Sequence record: MK327941.1
Direction: 5' to 3' (one strand)
Length of the DNA: 64,000 nt
DNA from: Escherichia phage vB_EcoM_G37-3
Shown here: positions 22,522-29,573 of the stretch, in pieces
Layout of the letters: each line of letters starts with the position of its first letter
How positions within the stretch are numbered: the first letter of the stretch is position 1
Translations under genes and position numbers: made by a program
The notes under the pieces: generated by a model
Database searches by the model: none
What the model saw: only the letters and a program-made list of their open reading frames with translations
Told to the model about the DNA's origin: nothing

Positions 22522-23013
22522 TTAGTTGATACCTAAGCCAATGAAAATAGGTTGGTCTTCTACACTACCCCTTCCAACACTAAATCGATTCAATTCTAAA
22601 AACTGCAATACGCTGTCAGTAAATCCGCGCATGGTAGTATCTAGGATAAAAATTGTTTTGTCAAGACTACGACCTCGCCATGTGATCGGATTCAGGAAAG
22701 TTCGGATCGACGTACAATCTACATTTGAAATATTTACATTTTCACCGCGACCGCGATCTCGGATCGTTTTGGCATGTTCCCGCGTCGTTGAAACGATAAA
22801 GACACTATAGCCTTTTCTCGTATAATGGTCATATAACTTGATTGTAGCGTCTGTATGCCCTGTCTGACGTCCTAAATTGATTGAGACAATGGAATCTAGG
22901 TCATCAGCAAAATTGCGTCGCTTACGACGTTCTATGATGCCATTTACGGCAGATACACACGCAGCATAAATCAAATCTTTACTTTCTAATTCTAAATCAA
23001 TGTCAATATTCAT
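22522..23013 (-). CDS. Hypothetical protein (163 aa)
   Basis: ORF with ATG and RBS; no recognised domain. Confidence 0.45.
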   Translation of the reverse strand: MNIDIDLELESKDLIYAACVSAVNGIIERRKRRNFADDLDSIVSINLGRQTGHTDATIKLYDHYTRKGYSVFIVSTTREHAKTIRDRGRGENVNISNVDCTSIRTFLNPITWRGRSLDKTIFILDTTMRGFTDSVLQFLELNRFSVGRGSVEDQPIFIGLGIN

Positions 23014-23021
23014 GGTAAAGT

Positions 23022-23056
23022 CTCCAGTGAACGGGGAGAGATCCTTAGATTGTCTC
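23022..23056. other. Stable GC-rich stem-loop downstream of endolysin gene
   Basis: Inverted repeat AACGGGGAGA...TCTCCCCGTT. Confidence 0.4.
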
Positions 23057-23075
23057 CCCGTTGATGGTTAATATT

Positions 23076-23465
23076 TTATTTTGGATCTGGGTATTTGCTG
23101 TGTGGTAGCTGAAAATGAACACCGTCTTTAAACGATACCCAATCCCCACCCCATTCAACAGGAACACCCAATTCTCGACCAGCTTGTTTAAATGCATCCG
23201 CGATCATGCGGTAGTATTTCATGTTCCATGTATCCTTATCTTTCGGATACGCTACAACATCAACCGCGAAACCGTGAAGATGACGAGATTTCATAGTCTT
23301 AGATTTACCTTCCGCAACATATTTCTTTTGCGTTTCTAGACTACGCACACCTTCCGTAATACCAAAATCGACCAGAGTCAGTTCTAACGCACGATGAACG
23401 ACTTTTACCAGATCAGGATGTACACCAACAAGCCGATCTTTGCTTCTTTGAGATAATTTAAACAT
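23076..23465 (-). CDS. M15-family L-alanyl-D-glutamate peptidase (T5 Lys-type endolysin)
   Basis: Aligns with phage T5 endolysin: KVVHRALELT, SRHLHGFAVDV, DAFKQAGRELG, GGDW, DGVHFQL (zinc-binding H/D residues). Confidence 0.75.
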   Translation of the reverse strand: MFKLSQRSKDRLVGVHPDLVKVVHRALELTLVDFGITEGVRSLETQKKYVAEGKSKTMKSRHLHGFAVDVVAYPKDKDTWNMKYYRMIADAFKQAGRELGVPVEWGGDWVSFKDGVHFQLPHSKYPDPK

Positions 23466-23493: not shown

Positions 23494-23685
23494 TTAGATT
23501 CCGGCGATCCTGCATATAGTTCTTGTATTAGCACCAATCAGGATCGCATTAACGACAACCATTCCCCAATCAACCCACTGATTATTATAAATGCTAAACC
23601 CGTTTGCAAGACCAAATACAAGCATTCCGGTACACATACTCAGAGCAATAATCAACATCACGGTAAAACCAAATGCAAATCTCAT
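23494..23685 (-). CDS. Small membrane protein (2 TM)
   Basis: Hydrophobic 63-aa ORF immediately upstream of endolysin. Confidence 0.4.
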   Translation of the reverse strand: MRFAFGFTVMLIIALSMCTGMLVFGLANGFSIYNNQWVDWGMVVVNAILIGANTRTICRIAGI

Positions 23686-23686
23686 A

Positions 23687-23953
23687 TTATTTTCCTTTTC
23701 TCTGTTTACGTTTATAAAAGTAATACATTACCTCATCGCGTCCGGTGATCCAACATGCTAGGGCGGTAAACAGGTTTACAATTCCCAACACACCTACTGA
23801 CGCGGCGCTGTCAACAGACATAGGAACAGTAAAGGCCATAGCTAACATAGCAACGCCACAAATGACATTAAGCACCATTATAATAAGACCGAAGAAAACC
23901 ATTGTCAATCCTCCGACACAAGAAAACCAACAATCACGCCAGTGATAAGACAT
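23687..23953 (-). CDS. Small membrane protein with basic C-terminal tail (holin-like features)
   Basis: Multiple hydrophobic helices then YKRKQRKGK tail. Confidence 0.4.
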   Translation of the reverse strand: MSYHWRDCWFSCVGGLTMVFFGLIIMVLNVICGVAMLAMAFTVPMSVDSAASVGVLGIVNLFTALACWITGRDEVMYYFYKRKQRKGK

Positions 23954-24096
23954 GATGCACCGCTAATCAGACAACCCGCGCCCATAGTTTCCCACCAGAT
24001 CAGAGAAGCGACAATAACACAGAATCCCCATACTACCGCAATCACAACATAGGCAAGGGTCGCCCAAAACATATATTTGTTCATAATAAATCCCAT
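23905..24096 (-). CDS. Small membrane protein
   Basis: Hydrophobic 63-aa ORF; start may be internal. Confidence 0.35.
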   Translation of the reverse strand: MGFIMNKYMFWATLAYVVIAVVWGFCVIVASLIWWETMGAGCLISGASCLITGVIVGFLVSED

Positions 24097-24269
24097 TCAC
24101 CAAACAAATAAGAAAAAAGCCATATCAACAGAAACGAGGCAATTGATCCGGCAAGCAAAATGATATTAGAGAATCCGCCGTCTATCCAGGCGACAAAACA
24201 GAATACGCCAGTATAGAAGCATAAACCCATTACAAAGCATACTATAAGCAACCATAGACAAAACTCCAT
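24081..24269 (-). CDS. Small membrane protein
   Basis: Hydrophobic 62-aa ORF with RBS GGAGGG. Confidence 0.35.
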   Translation of the reverse strand: MEFCLWLLIVCFVMGLCFYTGVFCFVAWIDGGFSNIILLAGSIASFLLIWLFSYLFGEWDLL

Positions 24270-24330
24270 AGAAAGCCCTCCAGCGAGATAAATTAGTGCG
24301 GGTAGTGGAATGTACTACCCGCTTTGTTAA

Positions 24331-24489
24331 TCAACGCAGAGCTTCTTCTAGCGCGATCCCAAACCATCCACAAACAACGCCCATACAGACAGCTACAAGA
24401 AGATTCATTCTCTCTTTAGGGATCATTGCAATCATAACAACAACCATACAGAAAGCCATTACCATTGAAGTTAACATTTGTTCAACCAT
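24331..24489 (-). CDS. Small membrane protein (about 52 aa) missed by ORF track
   Basis: ATG 24487-24489 with RBS AAGGTG; MVEQMLTSMVMAFCMVVVMIAMIPKE... Confidence 0.3.
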   Translation of the reverse strand: MVEQMLTSMVMAFCMVVVMIAMIPKERMNLLVAVCMGVVCGWFGIALEEALR

Positions 24490-24491
24490 TA

Positions 24492-24830
24492 TCACACCTT
24501 TAAAGTCATAGACGCATAAACATTAATGCCAGGCCAGTTAGGATCGCAATTATACTCAACATCCCACAAATAAAGCGGTTTAGATGTATCAGCCAAGTTT
24601 TTAAAATCTTCTACCCACATTTCAAGGCTATATGATGGATAAACTAGGCTATCATATCCGCCGTAACGTTGGCCTACTGGTCGGTCAGTAAAAACTACCT
24701 CAAGATCCGGTAATTCTTTTTCAAGGATAACCGCCAGCGCATAAATCAGACGGTCTTCCTTGTTACGCTGCCGAAGGACCGTTGTCAATTGGTTTTTCTG
24801 GTTCACTAGCAAGCACCTACACATTTTCAC
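24492..24830 (-). CDS. Hypothetical protein (112 aa)
   Basis: ORF in gene chain. Confidence 0.45.
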   Translation of the reverse strand: MKMCRCLLVNQKNQLTTVLRQRNKEDRLIYALAVILEKELPDLEVVFTDRPVGQRYGGYDSLVYPSYSLEMWVEDFKNLADTSKPLYLWDVEYNCDPNWPGINVYASMTLKV

Positions 24831-25083
24831 AGAATGAAATTTTCACAGACACAATTTTACCATAAGTGAAGAATGAATATACATTATCGAGATATTCAAC
24901 GTCACCTACAATCACATCAAACTGCGGATCAGCCACTGCCGCAACATATTCTACCAGTTCATCAAGAGAATGCAACTTAATTTCATCAATTCGGCTGTAT
25001 TTGGTTGCATCTTTGATTTTAAAACCACGTTCTTTCAGCTTATCAATCAGAATTTCACGCGGAGTTTCAAACAGTTTGCTCAT
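24817..25083 (-). CDS. Hypothetical protein (88 aa)
   Basis: ATG with RBS GAGGAT. Confidence 0.45.
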   Translation of the reverse strand: MSKLFETPREILIDKLKERGFKIKDATKYSRIDEIKLHSLDELVEYVAAVADPQFDVIVGDVEYLDNVYSFFTYGKIVSVKISFCENV

Positions 25084-25104
25084 AATATAATCCTCACATT
25101 AAAT

Positions 25105-25302
25105 CTAAAATTTGTTAACGACGAATTGCATAATTAGACTAATCACAAACATTGCAAACCAAGTATAAATGCAACAGATAAAAGCTACATACAATTCAAT
25201 CTGGTCAGAGAATACACCGGGTAAAAGCATTAGCAAAATAACAACAGTAAAGACGCTAGCGATACCCGCAACAAAACCAATATCATTTTTACTAATCGTC
25301 AT
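25105..25302 (-). CDS. Small membrane protein
   Basis: Hydrophobic ORF; ATG just inside TTG track start. Confidence 0.4.
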   Translation of the reverse strand: MTISKNDIGFVAGIASVFTVVILLMLLPGVFSDQIELYVAFICCIYTWFAMFVISLIMQFVVNKF

Positions 25303-25303
25303 C

Positions 25304-25447
25304 AAGTCACCGTTTTGTAAAGAAACACAATAAAATCCAAGACAAGAAAGACAGTGTAAATGATCATCGTCAAGACAGTAAACACTGTCAAATTTTCATC
25401 GTTAGTTAATTCATAGTCGCCCATCCATACAATCACAAGATATAGCA
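25304..25447 (-). CDS. Small membrane protein (about 48 aa), coordinates approximate
   Basis: MLYLVIVWMGDYELTNDENLTVFTVLTMIIYTVFLVLDFIVFLYKTVT; stop overlaps next start (TGATG). Confidence 0.25.
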
Positions 25448-25502
25448 TTGAAAGAATGGAAGCACCTACGAAGTTAAAAAAAACATATTCTTGAGCGTCA
25501 TA

Positions 25503-25685
25503 TTAACAACCATCGCGGCTTAAGTCAACAGCAATTGCATACAGCATAATGAATATGCTAGCAGATCCGAGAATCAATGCACCATCACATTTTGAAACTC
25601 GCTCATCAAAATGTAACATTATCCATCCGAGGATGTTAAAGGCGCAGACCGCGCCTATGTTCGCTAACCAATTAATCTTTTTCAT
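25503..25685 (-). CDS. Small membrane protein
   Basis: Hydrophobic 60-aa ORF. Confidence 0.4.
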   Translation of the reverse strand: MKKINWLANIGAVCAFNILGWIMLHFDERVSKCDGALILGSASIFIMLYAIAVDLSRDGC

Positions 25686-25693
25686 AATATACC

Positions 25694-26020
25694 TTAGAAA
25701 GAAACAGTTTTCAAGAAATCCAGATTTTTAGTACCGAAAACAGAAAAGTAGTGTTTTCCTTTTTCGGTTTTAGAGAAAGCGATTGTCTTCTCTACATGGT
25801 GACGGAAGCCAGACAGACGATCACCCAGGTCAAGGCGGCAAGCGTAAGTAGTGCCGTTTTCGAAAGTAACCTCGATTTGAGTTTTGTCATATTCGCTTTC
25901 ATAGGCTTTTGCTGCCGCGTCCTGTGCTTTACGCTCGAAGTCTTCGAAGTGGAATACTTCGTTTGCGTTAGCGAATACAGAAGATTCAGAGAAGATAACT
26001 TTAACAGATACTGGTTTCAT
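25694..26020 (-). CDS. Hypothetical protein (108 aa)
   Basis: ATG with RBS AAGGAGTATCAA and PeSL-type promoter. Confidence 0.5.
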   Translation of the reverse strand: MKPVSVKVIFSESSVFANANEVFHFEDFERKAQDAAAKAYESEYDKTQIEVTFENGTTYACRLDLGDRLSGFRHHVEKTIAFSKTEKGKHYFSVFGTKNLDFLKTVSF

Positions 26021-26052
26021 TTTGATACTCCTTAGTAGTTCGTGTTTCGTTT

Positions 26053-26081
26053 CGATGGGTGTATTATGCTATACACCCTCT
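26053..26081 (-). promoter_or_regulatory. Early sigma70-type promoter (PeSL-like cassette)
   Basis: Minus strand TTGACA, 17-nt spacer, CATAAT, conserved leader ACCCATCGAAACGAAACACGAAC. Confidence 0.5.
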
Positions 26082-26099
26082 CGCGTGTCAACAACTTTT

Positions 26100-26288
26100 T
26101 TAGTCTTTTTTCATAATTTCTAGAGCAGTTTCTACAGCACCTTTCCAACCTTCCCACATAATGGACATAGTAAGGAAGTTAAAGCACCCGCAGGAATCAA
26201 CCTTTTTAGAGATAAACCATTCTACAAACGCTTCGCTCATACCATGCTCTTTAGCGGATTCGCGTAATTGTTCAATTTGGTCTTCCAT
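26100..26288 (-). CDS. Hypothetical protein (62 aa)
   Basis: ORF in gene chain. Confidence 0.45.
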   Translation of the reverse strand: MEDQIEQLRESAKEHGMSEAFVEWFISKKVDSCGCFNFLTMSIMWEGWKGAVETALEIMKKD

Positions 26289-26310
26289 AGTATCACCTCA
26301 ACACTTAACG

Positions 26311-26505
26311 TTATTCAAACTCAAACGGTCTATTCAACCTATTGTAAAAGTACATATAACAAGCAAAATTATGCTTTGGCTGTACCGTATCAGATAGACA
26401 CGCTTTTACAGCCTCGCGGTCCGATGGGTCTACACCCTCAGCTTTAAGTAATGCTAAAATCTGGTTATAGCGTACTCTTAGTTGTACTAATGGTTTATCC
26501 CCCAT
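26311..26505 (-). CDS. Hypothetical protein (64 aa)
   Basis: ORF in gene chain. Confidence 0.4.
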   Translation of the reverse strand: MGDKPLVQLRVRYNQILALLKAEGVDPSDREAVKACLSDTVQPKHNFACYMYFYNRLNRPFEFE

Positions 26506-26514
26506 ATTACCCCC

Positions 26515-26742
26515 TTATAGTTGATCAGCAATGTATGCGGTGCATTTGCGGAGTTTAGCCATAGCACCACCTTTCATGTCGCTTGCGCCTACAATGTTCA
26601 TGATCTCTAAGCGATCAGCCGGATTCAGTCTAGTAGCCAAGATCTGGTTAGCCAGTTCCATTTTACCCATCTGCGGTTCCATCTCAAACATTTCACGCTC
26701 AAAGTCGATAATTTCTTTTGCTGCGTCTTTAAAGTTAATCAT
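26515..26742 (-). CDS. Hypothetical protein (75 aa)
   Basis: ATG with RBS GGAGGACCAAA and PeSL-type promoter. Confidence 0.45.
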   Translation of the reverse strand: MINFKDAAKEIIDFEREMFEMEPQMGKMELANQILATRLNPADRLEIMNIVGASDMKGGAMAKLRKCTAYIADQL

Positions 26743-26771
26743 TTTGGTCCTCCCGTTTCGTTGATGGTTGT

Positions 26772-26800
26772 ATTGTAGGGGAGTTATCCTCCCCTGTCAA
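26772..26800 (-). promoter_or_regulatory. Early promoter with spacer palindrome (PeSL-like)
   Basis: Minus strand TTGACA, spacer GGGGAGGATAACTCCCC, TACAAT. Confidence 0.6.
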
Positions 26801-26808
26801 CACTTTTA

Positions 26809-26994
26809 TCAGAAATATGCAATATAGTTTGCCAGTCCTACAGAGTCATCATTCGGCATTGCTTTTACCGCCAGTTCAAACCCTGCTTCAACTTTCTGTT
26901 TAGCGGATTCTTCGTTATAACCCCAGATGACCAGAATAGCTACTACGTTTTCTTTGCTTACTGCTTTCAGTGCTTTAGTGATGCGACGTGCCAT
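26809..26994 (-). CDS. Hypothetical protein (61 aa)
   Basis: ATG with RBS GGAGAATCAAATT and PeSL-type promoter. Confidence 0.45.
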   Translation of the reverse strand: MARRITKALKAVSKENVVAILVIWGYNEESAKQKVEAGFELAVKAMPNDDSVGLANYIAYF

Positions 26995-27040
26995 AATTTG
27001 ATTCTCCGTTTAAGAAAGTGTGTTTCGTTTCGATGGGTGT

Positions 27041-27069
27041 ATTATGCTATAGGCGTGATCTGGTGTCAA
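27041..27069 (-). promoter_or_regulatory. Early sigma70-type promoter (PeSL-like cassette)
   Basis: Minus strand TTGACA, 17-nt spacer, CATAAT, conserved leader. Confidence 0.5.
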
Positions 27070-27094
27070 CAACTTTTTTAAAAAATTTTAGGCA

Positions 27095-27125
27095 ATAAAA
27101 AAGCCACTCCGAAGAGTGGCTTATA
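27095..27125 (-). terminator. Rho-independent terminator
   Basis: Minus strand hairpin GCCACTC-TTCG-GAGTGGC followed by TTTTTT. Confidence 0.6.
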
Positions 27126-27271
27126 GGGAAGGTAGCGAATCTTCCTTATCTCCAACCTGCTAGCGGCCTAGCAAGTGAATGCTTTAGCGTACCGGATCAC
27201 CCCCATACGCTGTAATAAATGCGGCTAGGTGACGTCCAAATCATTCTAACCGCGCTGTCTTTAGTTCACTA

Positions 27272-27490
27272 TTATTTATATCGCTTTCTCTCGCGACGTT
27301 TTTGATCTTCTTCCTTGATAGAGTTAAACGCATCAAAAAGACACATGACACTAATAATAAACATAACCGTATTTTCTACGATATCCCACGGCTTCGCATC
27401 GGTACAGATTCCCCAAACTGTAAGAAATGCAAATAGTGCAGAAGAGATCACAAGCATGATACTTGCTAAGATATAAAAAGTCATTTTCAT
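27272..27490 (-). CDS. Small membrane protein
   Basis: Hydrophobic ORF with basic C-terminus KEEDQKRRERKRYK. Confidence 0.4.
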   Translation of the reverse strand: MKMTFYILASIMLVISSALFAFLTVWGICTDAKPWDIVENTVMFIISVMCLFDAFNSIKEEDQKRRERKRYK

Positions 27491-27681
27491 GGTTTTACCT
27501 CAATTCTTCGATATTCATCACACATCCACGCAGTAAGCAAGAATCCCAACACATAAGCAACAAAATACGTTAATGCTTCTTCTGGTTTCGTGCTATGTAT
27601 CATCAGTAAACCAGCGAGAACGGTCTTAACAATTGCATTTAAAATAATTAACCACGCAAATAATTTCATCGTTTGCCCCAT
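27487..27681 (-). CDS. Small membrane protein
   Basis: Hydrophobic 64-aa ORF. Confidence 0.4.
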   Translation of the reverse strand: MGQTMKLFAWLIILNAIVKTVLAGLLMIHSTKPEEALTYFVAYVLGFLLTAWMCDEYRRIEVKP

Positions 27682-27905
27682 TTCGGTCGAGTCTTTTCAA
27701 ACTTATACATTCCGTAACAATCTCGAATCATCCACGTAACAAGAGCACCAGTCAACACAGACAATACACAGAAGAAGTAAAACGGTCCGGTTGCATTATC
27801 AACATGAGCAAGCCAGGTAAAGAAAACACATGCAAGGAATGTAAAGAACATCATAAAACACAAGAAAGCAAAATATTTTATGCTACTCATAGCGCCACCA
27901 TACAA
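27666..27905 (-). CDS. Small membrane protein
   Basis: Hydrophobic 79-aa ORF. Confidence 0.4.
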   Translation of the reverse strand: MYGGAMSSIKYFAFLCFMMFFTFLACVFFTWLAHVDNATGPFYFFCVLSVLTGALVTWMIRDCYGMYKFEKTRPKWGKR

Positions 27906-27993
27906 CAGATCATAAGAAAACCCAACGCAATAAGAATTGCATCAAATTTAGTGAACTCAGATCCACCTATCAACATCATTCGTTCCTGTTCAT

Positions 27994-28236
27994 TCATAGA
28001 TCACAGAGCCATCTTAAAGCACCACATAAAGCGATCAAAAGACTAGGTATAAACGAGACTAAAACAAGACTACAAAAATCATCTAAGGTAACGCCGGAAT
28101 AGCTACCTACTGTAACAACACCGATCATCAGACACAGAAAGAAAACAAATGCAATCAGAAACAAAGTATTGCTAAACAGTTTAGTGATCATTAGACACCC
28201 CACGACGATCAATTTCAAAAACTTTTTTACCATCAA
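27994..28236 (-). CDS. Small membrane protein
   Basis: Hydrophobic 80-aa ORF. Confidence 0.4.
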   Translation of the reverse strand: MMVKKFLKLIVVGCLMITKLFSNTLFLIAFVFFLCLMIGVVTVGSYSGVTLDDFCSLVLVSFIPSLLIALCGALRWLCDL

Positions 28237-28384
28237 CGAAGCATGTCACAACTGCCTCGTTGACTTCCGCAAATTGTTGTGTTACCCACTTAAGGTCAGA
28301 GCGAAACAATGTTCTATTAATAACAAATGTTTTACCTTTCTTATCCATACCCATAAATTTTGCTTTAACCATATCCAATTCCAT
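28181..28384 (-). CDS. Hypothetical protein (67 aa), overlaps downstream ORF in another frame
   Basis: ORF with ATG; 56-nt overlap with 27994-28236. Confidence 0.35.
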   Translation of the reverse strand: MELDMVKAKFMGMDKKGKTFVINRTLFRSDLKWVTQQFAEVNEAVVTCFVDGKKVFEIDRRGVSNDH

Positions 28385-28552
28385 ATTATCACCTTATTTG
28401 CTAATCGCTAAACCCAATCCGAAGAGAGCACCCGATGCTACAGTATACCCGAAAGTTTCAAAGGAAGTAAAGATATCTAAGCCGCCAGCTAACAGAGTTG
28501 CTGTAAACAGAGTACCAGCTACGAACATAAAAGTTTTACCGATAAATTTCAT
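28385..28552 (-). CDS. Small membrane protein (about 55 aa) missed by ORF track
   Basis: ATG 28550-28552 with RBS AAGGAGAATCAAA and PeSL-type promoter; MKFIGKTFMFVAGTLFTATLLAGG... Confidence 0.35.
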
Positions 28553-28583: not shown

Positions 28584-28612
28584 ATCTTACTACCCCCGTT
28601 TCATGTTGTCAA
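28584..28612 (-). promoter_or_regulatory. Early promoter with palindrome around -10 (PeSL-like)
   Basis: Minus strand TTGACA, 17-nt spacer, TAAGAT within GGGGGTAG...ACCCCC inverted repeat. Confidence 0.55.
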
Positions 28613-28618
28613 CTATTT

Positions 28619-28991
28619 TTAAGAATATTTTACTTCGTCTACAATATCTTTCATGACATTGATTTCCATTCCGGTCAGAACACGTTGGAACATGTGCTGC
28701 ACATACGCTTTCAGGTATTCATTTGATGGCTTGCTATCGAAAGTCTTTTTAGTGTAGTAGTCATCACCGAAAGCTACTGTAATTACATTTTCGTCGTCGT
28801 TCCAAGCGATATAAGCAAATTTGCCGTTATCCCAGAAGCGAGCACTAATTGCTACTTTTGTTGAATCGAATCCTACTTCGCTGTGAGATTCAAGAACTAC
28901 TTGCGTGCCAGTTTCTTTATGAATGTAGTAGCGGGATACTAAGTCAAAGTTACGGGTGTAGTGACATTCAAATTTATCTTTAAACATCATC
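28619..28991 (-). CDS. Hypothetical protein (about 124 aa)
   Basis: Probable ATG at MMMFKDKFECHY with RBS AGGAGAATCAAA; track start 29062 lies in promoter. Confidence 0.45.
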
Positions 28992-29030
28992 ATTTTGATT
29001 CTCCTAAGTGTGTTTCGTTTCGATATGTGC

Positions 29031-29059
29031 ATTATGCTATAGTCGTTTATGGTTGTCAA
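29031..29059 (-). promoter_or_regulatory. Early sigma70-type promoter (PeSL-like cassette)
   Basis: Minus strand TTGACA, 17-nt spacer, CATAAT, conserved leader. Confidence 0.5.
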
Positions 29060-29062
29060 CAC

Positions 29063-29100
29063 CTAAAAACAAAAAACCCCGAAAATTTTTCGGGGTATAA
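29063..29100 (-). terminator. Rho-independent terminator downstream of 57B
   Basis: Minus strand hairpin CCCCGAAAAATTTTCGGGG followed by TTTTTTG. Confidence 0.6.
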
Positions 29101-29102
29101 AA

Positions 29103-29573
29103 TTACAGTTTGGTCGTCCACTCCAGGTCTAGATCTTCGACATACTCATGAGATCGGACAATCTCTAAATCGAACTCTAGGTCAGTGCCAAATTTACGCG
29201 CACCAACATCATAAGAAAGCGTGATATGCGGTACATATTCAGGATAATCCCACGTCGCACCTAAAGCAGTGCCGATATCGTGTCTGAATTGCATGTAGTC
29301 GCTTTCAAATGCCAACACAAGTGCATTAGTACCGGATTGAGTTTCAAACACTTTCAGATGACACAGAGAGCCTAAGAACTTCTCCCCTTCTTCTGGGATA
29401 AACGGAACATAGACACGAGAATATAAGATAGTGCTATGCAGTTTATCACGAGGAACGGCATTAGGCAGATCGTAGAACTCCTGCAATTTTTCAATGCGGT
29501 CTAGTGTATCCTCAGTGAATTTAACCGCCGCATATGTACCTTTAACGGATTCTCTAAACGGGGTCATAATCAA
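29103..29573 (-). CDS. 57B: 2H-phosphoesterase-fold protein, T4 57B/Acb1-like (anti-CBASS cyclic-nucleotide phosphodiesterase)
   Basis: Two H-x-T motifs (LHSTILYS, PHITLSY) typical of 2H phosphoesterases; position next to 57A and gene 1 as in T4. Confidence 0.65.
   Translation of the reverse strand: MIMTPFRESVKGTYAAVKFTEDTLDRIEKLQEFYDLPNAVPRDKLHSTILYSRVYVPFIPEEGEKFLGSLCHLKVFETQSGTNALVLAFESDYMQFRHDIGTALGATWDYPEYVPHITLSYDVGARKFGTDLEFDLEIVRSHEYVEDLDLEWTTKL

Follow-up and report, generated by a model that had tools for sequence, protein, structure and literature searches.

A conserved array of small predicted membrane protein genes between the endolysin gene and 57B in Escherichia phage vB_EcoM_G37-3

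Why does an RB49-like phage encode about half of its small membrane proteins within 3% of the genome, are the reading frames so packed genuine genes, and what might their products do? The question is raised by a stretch of 64,000 nucleotides (nt) from Escherichia phage vB_EcoM_G37-3 (sequence record MK327941.1), analysed as a whole and called the window below, in which 14 small hydrophobic open reading frames (ORFs) of 36-74 amino acids (aa), here M1 to M14, lie between 23.49 and 28.55 kb, on the minus strand throughout. A first-pass annotation, made from the letters of the sequence, had counted at least 14 small predicted membrane ORFs between about 23.5 and 28.6 kb, a count with which ours agrees. 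Our findings show that M1-M14 are real, separately evolving and constrained protein-coding genes, 13 of which are intact in this isolate.

The region from 23.4 to 28.7 kb is 98.6% identical to Escherichia phage W115, which assigns it to Krischvirus (RB49-like coliphages), and 96-98% identical to RB49, Phi1, GEC-3S, ECD7, and about 50 other Krischvirus genomes; every gene from about 22.5 to 30.5 kb is carried by the minus strand. For comparison, we used the window with 15 further Krischvirus genomes (16 in all), and then added six diverged metagenomic contigs of about 88-90% nt identity (22 genomes). The start sites taken for M1-M14 are those conserved in the annotation of RB49 and W115, transmembrane (TM) segments were called with a Kyte-Doolittle hydrophobicity window and a cut-off, and selection was measured as the pooled Nei-Gojobori ratio of nonsynonymous to synonymous substitution rates (dN/dS). 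In the following list, the dN/dS value of the 22-genome set stands in brackets, and SD denotes a Shine-Dalgarno motif.

M1, 23494-23685, minus strand: 63 aa; a hydrophobic segment at residues 1-28 passes the cut-off and a weaker second segment may follow; directly upstream of the endolysin gene; dN/dS 0.21-0.24 (0.24); intact in 22 of 22 genomes.
M2, 23687-23902, minus strand: 71 aa; predicted helical hairpin whose basic C-terminal tail is invariant; dN/dS 0.11-0.21 (0.21).
M3, 23905-24084, minus strand: 59 aa; two predicted TM segments; 4-nt overlap with M4; dN/dS 0.21-0.25 (0.25).
M4, 24081-24269, minus strand: 62 aa; two predicted TM segments; SD GGAGG; dN/dS 0.42-0.56 (0.42).
M5, 24331-24489, minus strand: 52 aa; two predicted TM segments; dN/dS 0.21-0.32 (0.32); intact in 22 of 22 genomes.
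M6, 25105-25302, minus strand: 65 aa; two predicted TM segments; two deeply diverged alleles in the lineage; dN/dS 0.70 (0.70).
M7, 25302-25448, minus strand: frameshifted remnant of 48 aa that lacks an SD motif; an intact copy has 65-69 aa and two predicted TM segments; dN/dS (0.31).
M8, 25503-25685, minus strand: 60 aa; two predicted TM segments; dN/dS 0.35-0.39 (0.35).
M9, 27272-27490, minus strand: 72 aa; two predicted TM segments; the C-terminal tail, KEEDQKRRERKRYK, is strongly charged; closes putative unit A; dN/dS 0.11-0.20 (0.20).
M10, 27487-27669, minus strand: 60 aa; two predicted TM segments; dN/dS 0.23-0.26 (0.23).
M11, 27666-27890, minus strand: 74 aa; two predicted TM segments and a basic C-terminal tail; the most constrained M gene; dN/dS 0.09-0.12 (0.12); 91-99% identical at the aa level to its diverged metagenomic counterparts.
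M12, 27887-27997, minus strand: 36 aa; one predicted C-terminal TM segment; 4-nt overlap at each end; dN/dS 0.28-0.31 (0.28).
M13, 27994-28191, minus strand: 65 aa; two predicted TM segments; hydrophobic peak 2.9-3.3; overlaps the end of dmd by 11 nt; dN/dS 0.54-0.55 (0.54); intact in 21 of 21 genomes.
M14, 28394-28552, minus strand: 52 aa; weakly hydrophobic and Gly-rich; ortholog of RB49p124; first gene of putative unit A; SD AAGGAG 7 nt before the ATG; dN/dS 0.08-0.40 (0.40); intact in 20 of 20 genomes; PHROG 16462.

That these are constrained genes follows because the ORFs are intact, dN/dS in the annotated frame is low and the hydrophobic peaks are kept. The M ORFs are intact in 14-16 of the 16 isolates and in about 20-22 of the 22 genomes, so that a lack of conservation in related phages, one outcome by which the first-pass annotation would have had them dismissed, is not observed. 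Among the 16 genomes, dN/dS ranges from 0.08 to 0.56 in the annotated frame, against mostly 1-7 in the three control frames, a few of which are lower (e.g. those of M10 and M7). Across the orthologs, 19-45% of positions vary, yet the peaks of hydrophobicity differ little, and relatives that share about 88% identity have the genes of the array in unchanged order and size.

Hydrophobic ORFs of this kind could also be expected by chance on a T-rich strand, or might be decaying remnants carried along in annotation from RB49. The coding strand is indeed T-rich (AT skew +0.16 on the plus strand), and T at the second codon position, which gives hydrophobic residues, reaches 0.47 in the M ORFs versus 0.31 in soluble neighbors; moreover, M7 is disrupted in several isolates and M6 has a dN/dS of 0.70. 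Yet dN/dS lies well below 1 in 13 of the 14, and solely in the annotated frame; the ORFs are intact in 22 genomes even though 10-45% of their residues vary, with SD motifs and coupled junctions conserved; and a Kyte-Doolittle peak of at least 2.0 is reached by 13 of the 14 M ORFs versus only 2 of 25 alternative-frame ORFs of the same stretch. A chance or remnant origin is, thus, highly improbable and largely refuted by the conservation data; T-rich composition as the source of the ORFs is ruled out by dN/dS and ORF integrity.

The M proteins evolve faster than their soluble neighbors. Their aa identity to metagenomic relatives is mostly 67-90%, versus mostly 96-100% for S108, S109, S113, S117, and S125. 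In dN/dS the M genes are comparable to the endolysin (0.23-0.27) and Dmd (0.27-0.32), with 0.01-0.16 for nearby soluble ORFans (0.23, 0.32, and 0.01-0.16, respectively, in the 22-genome set).

Most M proteins show two hydrophobic segments by the hydrophobicity window, and M1, M7, M12, and M14 show one; the peak of M14 is borderline (1.54-1.77). C-terminal tails rich in Lys and Arg are found in M2, M9, and M11, and an AlphaFold2 model of M2 is a helical hairpin with helices at residues 2-25 and 30-69 (pLDDT, predicted local distance difference test score, 79.6). Some details of the first-pass annotation required adjustment. The span it gave, 24081-28552, leaves out M1-M3 at its start, even though its text has the correct 23.5 kb; M14 ends at 28394 and not at 28385; the longer versions of M10, M11, and M13 rest on upstream alternative starts that are unused in RB49 and W115; and the ORF placed at about 25304-25447 is no intact gene here, this being the frameshifted M7 without SD motif.

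How unusual is such a cluster? An annotation-free tiling gene call over the whole RB49 genome (164 kb), counting TM-like ORFs of at most 100 aa as small-TM ORFs, yields 24 of them, 12 within this single 5-kb bin (Fisher p=1.6e-5; Poisson 1.6e-14 vs the rate elsewhere). By the same method, T4 reaches a maximum of four per 5.2 kb, at its 52.1/ac/ndd.x cluster, the RB49 bin being about three times denser. Within the 64-kb window, 12 small-TM ORFs fall in the array versus five in the other 58.8 kb (p=0.004). The unusual density reported at first reading is therefore statistically robust.

Signals for transcription and translation are arranged around the array as follows.

Promoter of unit A, 28584-28612, minus strand: predicted early sigma-70-type, TTGACA-17-TAAGAT, 10 of 12 matches; the orthologous position is an annotated promoter in GEC-3S.
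Promoter of unit B, 26063-26091, minus strand: predicted early, TTGACA-17-CATAAT, 11 of 12 matches; an annotated promoter in GEC-3S.
Terminator hairpin of unit A, 27101-27122, minus strand: predicted intrinsic terminator, a 9-bp stem followed by a T-run; together with the promoter at 27041-27069, it makes up a promoter-early stem-loop (PeSL) cassette, and it belongs to the 61-nt repeat family D1.
Hairpin between M5 and M4, 24298-24322, minus strand: G+C-rich; no clean T-run on the coding strand and no promoter after it.

Strong sigma-70-type promoters on the minus strand are found at 29059, 28612, 27069, 26800, and 26091, with terminator hairpins at 29096-29076 and 27122-27101, and the positions of promoters and terminators match the annotation of GEC-3S. 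Three direct repeats of 61 nt make up the D1 family (26042-26102, 27020-27080, and 29010-29070), each with a TTGACA-17-CATAAT promoter, and a terminator hairpin precedes two of the three copies. By their sequence, the D1 repeats are PeSL mobile regulatory cassettes as known from the hyperplastic regions of RB49 and phi1, where PeSL cassettes were shown to provide strong early promoters as well as terminators (PMC2839356). From these signals we infer two transcription units: a putative unit A, in which the promoter at 28612 is followed by M14, dmd, M13, M12, M11, M10, M9, and the terminator, and a putative unit B, in which the promoter at 26091 is followed by S113 (LPD25), M8, M7, M6, S109, S108, M5, the hairpin, M4, M3, M2, M1, and the endolysin gene, M4-M1 and the latter presumably by read-through. 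Of T4-type late promoter motifs the region has a single one, at 27280-27273, where the stop codon of M9 is overlapped; none was found near M1-M4 or the endolysin gene. A near-consensus sigma-70-like site, TTGACA-17-TATTAT (11 of 12 matches), also spans the M3/M2 junction at 23880-23908 on the minus strand; it may be due to chance, and would initiate a transcript inside M2 that covers M1 and the endolysin gene alone.

Good ribosome binding sites and translational coupling had been proposed for these genes, and both are borne out. A Shine-Dalgarno match of at least 4 nt precedes 12 of the 14 M ORFs. Five junctions overlap by 4 nt in the manner of ATGA (M13/M12, M12/M11, M11/M10, M10/M9, and M4/M3), dmd and M13 overlap by 11 nt, and further junctions are nearly as tight (M7/M6 -1, M3/M2 +2, M2/M1 +1); the overlaps and the spacings of -1 to +2 nt indicate translational coupling. 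From the end of M1 to the endolysin start there are 28 nt.

Where did the genes come from? Tandem duplication was considered as the origin of the array and rejected, an all-against-all BLASTP of the 14 proteins having returned nothing below E=0.01. Each M protein matches only its own small PHROG, which bears no function label and has a profile as long as the protein, and Pfam, NCBIfam, and PADLOC gave nothing beyond subthreshold noise. Sensitive blastn places the M genes in Krischvirus only, the matches outside it being limited to S115-S117 (T1-like phages). Searched against 5.8 billion proteins, M2, M6, and M14 met only relatives with 74-99% identity across the greater part of the query, mostly on phage-sized contigs (~165-175 kb), those of M14 on Krischvirus-like contigs only; a hidden Markov model profile of the M2 family met nothing beyond its own cluster among 1.84 billion representatives, and a scan of IMG/VR for further relatives added one locus. 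Foldseek with the M2 model gave the Phi1 ortholog as the sole significant match, the rest being generic helical hairpins, a fold that does not discriminate between functions. By sequence, then, the M genes are specific to Krischvirus-like phages (ORFans). No homology with the M proteins was found for T4 small membrane proteins (imm, sp, ac, 52.1, ndd.x, 47.1, 55.8, trna.4, and others); for Imm in particular, tblastn against RB49 and the window gave no match at E<=1, phmmer against the M proteins nothing significant, and no Imm family is among the Pfam matches of the M proteins at E<=1.

Within the lineage, some members are replaced, disrupted or lost while others remain, as is seen for M7, M6, and, in Phi1, M12. 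M6 occurs as two allele types that are 35-37% identical (measured in the metagenomic contigs mg20, mg21, and mg23); the diverged type is carried by mg20, JSE (locus L007, 2307-2501), and Makalu (locus L008, 2305-2505), in the last two as a single allele in place of M6 and M7 together, and mg23 lacks M7 as well. JK32 (locus L009, 1572-1736) has part of M4 a second time, as a tandem copy fused to unrelated sequence. The gene for M7 contains a poly-T tract (25476-25483, minus strand) that reads T5, T5C, T6, T7 or T8 according to the isolate, shifting the 65-69-aa gene in or out of frame; the window has T8 and is out of frame, and its remnant corresponds to positions 18-65 of PHROG 21837. This variation could be a real on/off mutational switch, a slippage site or homopolymer sequencing error.

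The array occupies a recognizable position, between vs.8/endolysin and 57B and around dmd, and its neighbors are the following.

dmd, 28181-28384, minus strand: antitoxin versus host RnlA/LsoA, embedded in putative unit A; PHROG 2102, E=1e-29; 45% identical to T4 Dmd.
Endolysin gene, 23076-23465, minus strand: M15 L-alanyl-D-glutamate peptidase, the downstream flank; PHROG 465, E=5.5e-67; Pfam Peptidase_M15_4.
57B, 29103-29573, minus strand: the upstream flank, named '57B' in RB49; PF23474 Acb1 (anti-CBASS nuclease family) is recorded on its orthologs in loci L020-L024.

The same slot in T4 holds denV, ipII, ipIII, e, nudE, e.2-e.8, rnaC/D, tRNAs, segB, and ipI, that is, entirely different genes, and with the PeSL early-promoter/terminator cassettes this bears out the initial description of a T4-like hyperplastic region: one hyperplastic slot with lineage-specific content. 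In T4, sp (spackle, superinfection exclusion) is two genes after dmd. By tblastn, RB49 and the window hold homologs of T4 holin t (49% identity), of the spanins pseT.2/3 and of dmd, and the rI antiholin is also encoded elsewhere in the genome; no homologs of T4 imm, sp, ac, 52.1 or ndd.2-6 were detected in RB49 and the window by the same search.

What the M proteins do is best approached from T4 Imm: this 9-kDa protein of the inner membrane has recently been reported to bind an incoming phage's tape-measure protein and to prevent genome translocation (bioRxiv 10.64898/2026.03.06.709160). The reading that we favor, with about even confidence and by analogy, is that the M proteins are early inner-membrane proteins that alter the envelope of the infected cell in favor of the phage, most likely by Imm-like superinfection exclusion. 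Judging from the signals described above, host sigma-70 RNA polymerase would start at the two strong early promoters of PeSL type and transcribe the M genes directly after infection, translation would be tightly coupled within the strings M13-M9 and M4-M1, and the products would insert in the Escherichia coli inner membrane as helical hairpins with their Lys- and Arg-rich tails in the cytoplasm. There they might, like Imm, block the membrane-insertion or genome-translocation apparatus of later-arriving phages, and some may instead neutralize membrane-acting host defense effectors or inhibit host membrane proteins. Because no Imm or Sp has been detected in Krischvirus, some M proteins may supply the exclusion function, and the many unrelated families, the faster protein evolution and the turnover of alleles and genes fit factors that compete with other phages or with host defenses. 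Several points weigh against exclusion as the common role. Neither in sequence nor in fold do the M proteins resemble Imm, Sp, Ac or another characterized protein; the literature searched gave no transcript, proteomic or phenotypic data on the M genes; faster evolution is also expected since TM helices tolerate hydrophobic substitutions; missed detection of Imm and Sp homologs by tblastn does not prove the function missing; and the TM assignments come from a Kyte-Doolittle window rather than a trained predictor, with M14 borderline. Fourteen exclusion factors in one phage would also be unprecedented, and some M proteins therefore probably do something else. The roles first suggested for the array (exclusion, host takeover, and antidefense) are the most plausible ones inasmuch as the genes are real and constrained, the validated antidefense genes dmd and 57B (Acb1) are neighbors, and neither Imm nor Sp was detected; homology to a characterized protein lends them no support.

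Three other functions deserve consideration. Lying next to 57B/Acb1 and around dmd, the array might act in counterdefense at the membrane, some or all of its products binding and neutralizing membrane-embedded components of host defense and so complementing the soluble Acb1 and Dmd. Accessory regions of phages tend to cluster counterdefense genes (bioRxiv 10.1101/2023.04.06.535777), and M proteins do outpace their soluble neighbors in evolution, with turnover of alleles. Neighborhood association is, however, the sole basis for this proposal: PADLOC and Pfam returned no matches, no membrane-embedded antidefense protein of such kind was found in the literature searched, and gene content is nearly invariant across isolates from many hosts, unlike that of typical counterdefense islands. 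We consider it unlikely; its targets would be, for instance, TM effectors of CBASS or Pycsar, RexB-like or Abi pore formers, Zorya or Kiwa.

M1-M4 invite another comparison, being tightly coupled and 28 nt before the start of the endolysin gene: they might be a holin/antiholin/pinholin-type module that arrived with the non-T4 M15 endolysin and controls release or the timing of lysis. M2 in particular, a 71-aa two-helix hairpin with a highly basic tail, has a class II holin-like architecture (shared by M9 and M11), and weak Pfam matches to holin superfamily III were obtained for M2 (E=0.18) and M11 (E=0.076). These matches (Phage_holin_3_5, E=0.18; Phage_holin_3_6, E=0.076-0.96) score 10-13.5 bits against cut-offs of 27-28, and no holin or lysis-category PHROG is matched; a complete T4-type set (holin t, rI antiholin, and spanins pseT.2/3) exists elsewhere; by sequence signals, no TATAAATA late promoter lies near M1-M4 or lys and the upstream signals are of early sigma-70 type; and the module would account for no more than 4 of the 14 genes. 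That M1-M4 serve in lysis seems less likely to us, indeed quite doubtful. The coupling could alternatively serve to make M13-M9 and M4-M1 in fixed ratios as subunits of one or two hetero-oligomeric inner-membrane channels or scaffolds. The four- and five-gene runs are joined by 4-nt overlaps or 1-2-nt gaps, every relative has the genes in strictly the same order and at the same sizes, and the members are mutually unrelated, as expected of subunits rather than paralogs; but coupling of this kind is common in T4-type early operons, hence not specific, and M7, M6, and M12 (in Phi1) have been lost, frameshifted or swapped with the others retained. Such complexes seem to us improbable.

A stronger version of the Imm-like reading would see the array as a set of a dozen unrelated membrane 'immunity' mini-proteins, coexpressed within minutes of infection and each blocking another of the threats that act at the membrane, e.g. 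the channels through which competing phage types translocate their genomes or the pore-forming effectors of host abortive-infection systems. We think this quite a long shot; if true, it would extend the soluble antidefense genes (Acb1 and Dmd) into the membrane. Nothing in phage genomes is understood less well than the small membrane proteins, which annotation often misses, and this locus is a compact, tractable target in which to screen for new mechanisms of superinfection exclusion or membrane-level counterdefense, as well as a place to ask how RB49-type phages manage without T4 Imm and Sp. For its concentration of small membrane proteins and its place among antidefense genes, the array is a reasonable target for screening, yet not a surprising finding.

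Putative unit A also contains, beyond its last gene, a candidate RNA element.

Conserved structured noncoding element of 150-180 nt, 27095-27272 (also delimited as 27123-27271), minus strand: at the 3' end of putative unit A, where it follows the stop codon of M9 and leads up to the PeSL terminator.

Better conserved than the genes that flank it, the 178-nt element has a minimum free energy of -64.6 kcal/mol (z=-4.47 vs shuffled sequence) and is 94-99% identical in 20 of 20 relatives, with a nucleotide diversity (pi) of 0.028 versus 0.080 for M9; substitutions are confined to hairpin loops, plus one compensatory pair. Because a conserved TATAAATA late-promoter motif (27273-27280) stands at its 5' edge, the element may represent a small RNA of about 170 nt that is transcribed late. 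No Rfam family scored above threshold. A relationship to T4 rnaC/rnaD, which occupy the same genomic slot in T4, was considered and discarded, there being no similarity. Were the idea correct, an ultra-conserved structured RNA of about 150 nt, with a possible late promoter before it, would be a new phage small RNA.

Several neighboring genes also vary or call for comment. S109 (24817-25083, minus strand) is cut short at 88 aa here by a premature stop specific to this isolate; its length is 106 aa (RB49p109, overlapping S108) in 15 of 15 isolates compared. S115, S116, and S117/DUF7421 (26306-27004) are 74-79% identical at the nt level to T1-like (Drexlerviridae-type, ~50-kb) coliphages and to Shigella phages, which suggests recent horizontal exchange between unrelated phage families within the hyperplastic region; S116 occurs as two allele types among Krischvirus isolates. 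At about 23013-23120, the last ~46 nt of the endolysin gene diverge in JSE, JK32, PTE-Eco09, and FL04, and these four phages have a 576-nt homing endonuclease or AP2-type ORF downstream of it, replacing vs.8; the divergent 3' end is consistent with insertion of a homing endonuclease adjoining lys. Upstream of the array, 57B is called '57B / RNA ligase' in RB49, and some of its public product names are out of date because the orthologs carry the Pfam Acb1 domain. S125 (28619-28993, minus strand) encodes 124 aa with a dN/dS of 0.05-0.12 and has a weak, subthreshold Pfam match to T4 Gp30.7 (E=0.004; 17 bits vs a cut-off of 27).

How new, then, is the array? M1-M14 are previously annotated, being orthologs of RB49p103-107, 110-112, 118-122, and 124, all labeled 'hypothetical protein' in RB49, and 11 of the M ORFs are labeled 'putative membrane protein' in the record of W115; the records of kvi, Brandy, FL04, 011D4, and JK32 omit 2-5 of the 14 despite intact sequence. 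Across the literature searched (the PeSL papers, a five-genome T4-like comparison, an accessory-gene screen, and searches for Krischvirus), the cluster is neither described nor covered by data, and the text of PMC2839356 and PMC4122927 mentions neither membrane proteins nor the array. M1-M14 are, therefore, lineage-specific ORFans of a general kind, small early membrane proteins of T4-type hyperplastic regions, that is known, because T4, too, carries a series of very small ORFs annotated as predicted membrane proteins (52.1, ac, and ndd.2-ndd.6).

This T4 series, between gene 52 and rIIB, resembles the array as a run of tiny predicted membrane or periplasmic ORFs in an early nonessential region, and differs from it in its unrelated sequence, its slot, the length of its ORFs (26-51 aa), and its density (4 vs 12 per 5.2 kb). 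T4 Imm is an early, nonessential protein of 83 aa with inner-membrane helices and a charged cytoplasmic end, whose gene lies between 42 and 43. The M proteins are also small, consist almost wholly of hydrophobic helices and are encoded in a variable, presumably early region; however, they share no sequence similarity with Imm, their genes lie at another genomic position, and one or two helices are predicted for them, whereas Imm is modeled with four. T4 Spackle, the product of sp, has 97 aa and a signal peptide and is secreted as a soluble protein into the periplasm, where it inhibits the gp5 lysozyme. Its gene is that of an early exclusion factor downstream of T4 dmd, just as M13-M9 come after dmd here, but there is no sequence similarity, and the M proteins are predicted TM hairpins rather than secreted globular proteins. 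Class II holins and pinholins, such as S21 of phage 21, have about 70 aa, two TM domains and a basic C terminus. M2, M9, and M11 match them in size, two-helix hairpin and basic tail, and M1-M4 adjoin an endolysin gene, whereas the lack of a family match, the early promoter signals and the full T4-type set of holin, antiholin, and spanins elsewhere set them apart. The PeSL-flanked ORFan cassettes of RB49 and phi1 (Arbiol et al. 2010, PMC2839356; Comeau et al. 2014, PMC4122927) belong to the same lineage and likewise combine promoter/stem-loop cassettes with database-orphan ORFs; the array shares with them a hyperplastic position, flanking repeated cassettes and the lack of homologs beyond the lineage, yet its gene content is far more stable between isolates than that of the RB49/phi1 differential loci.

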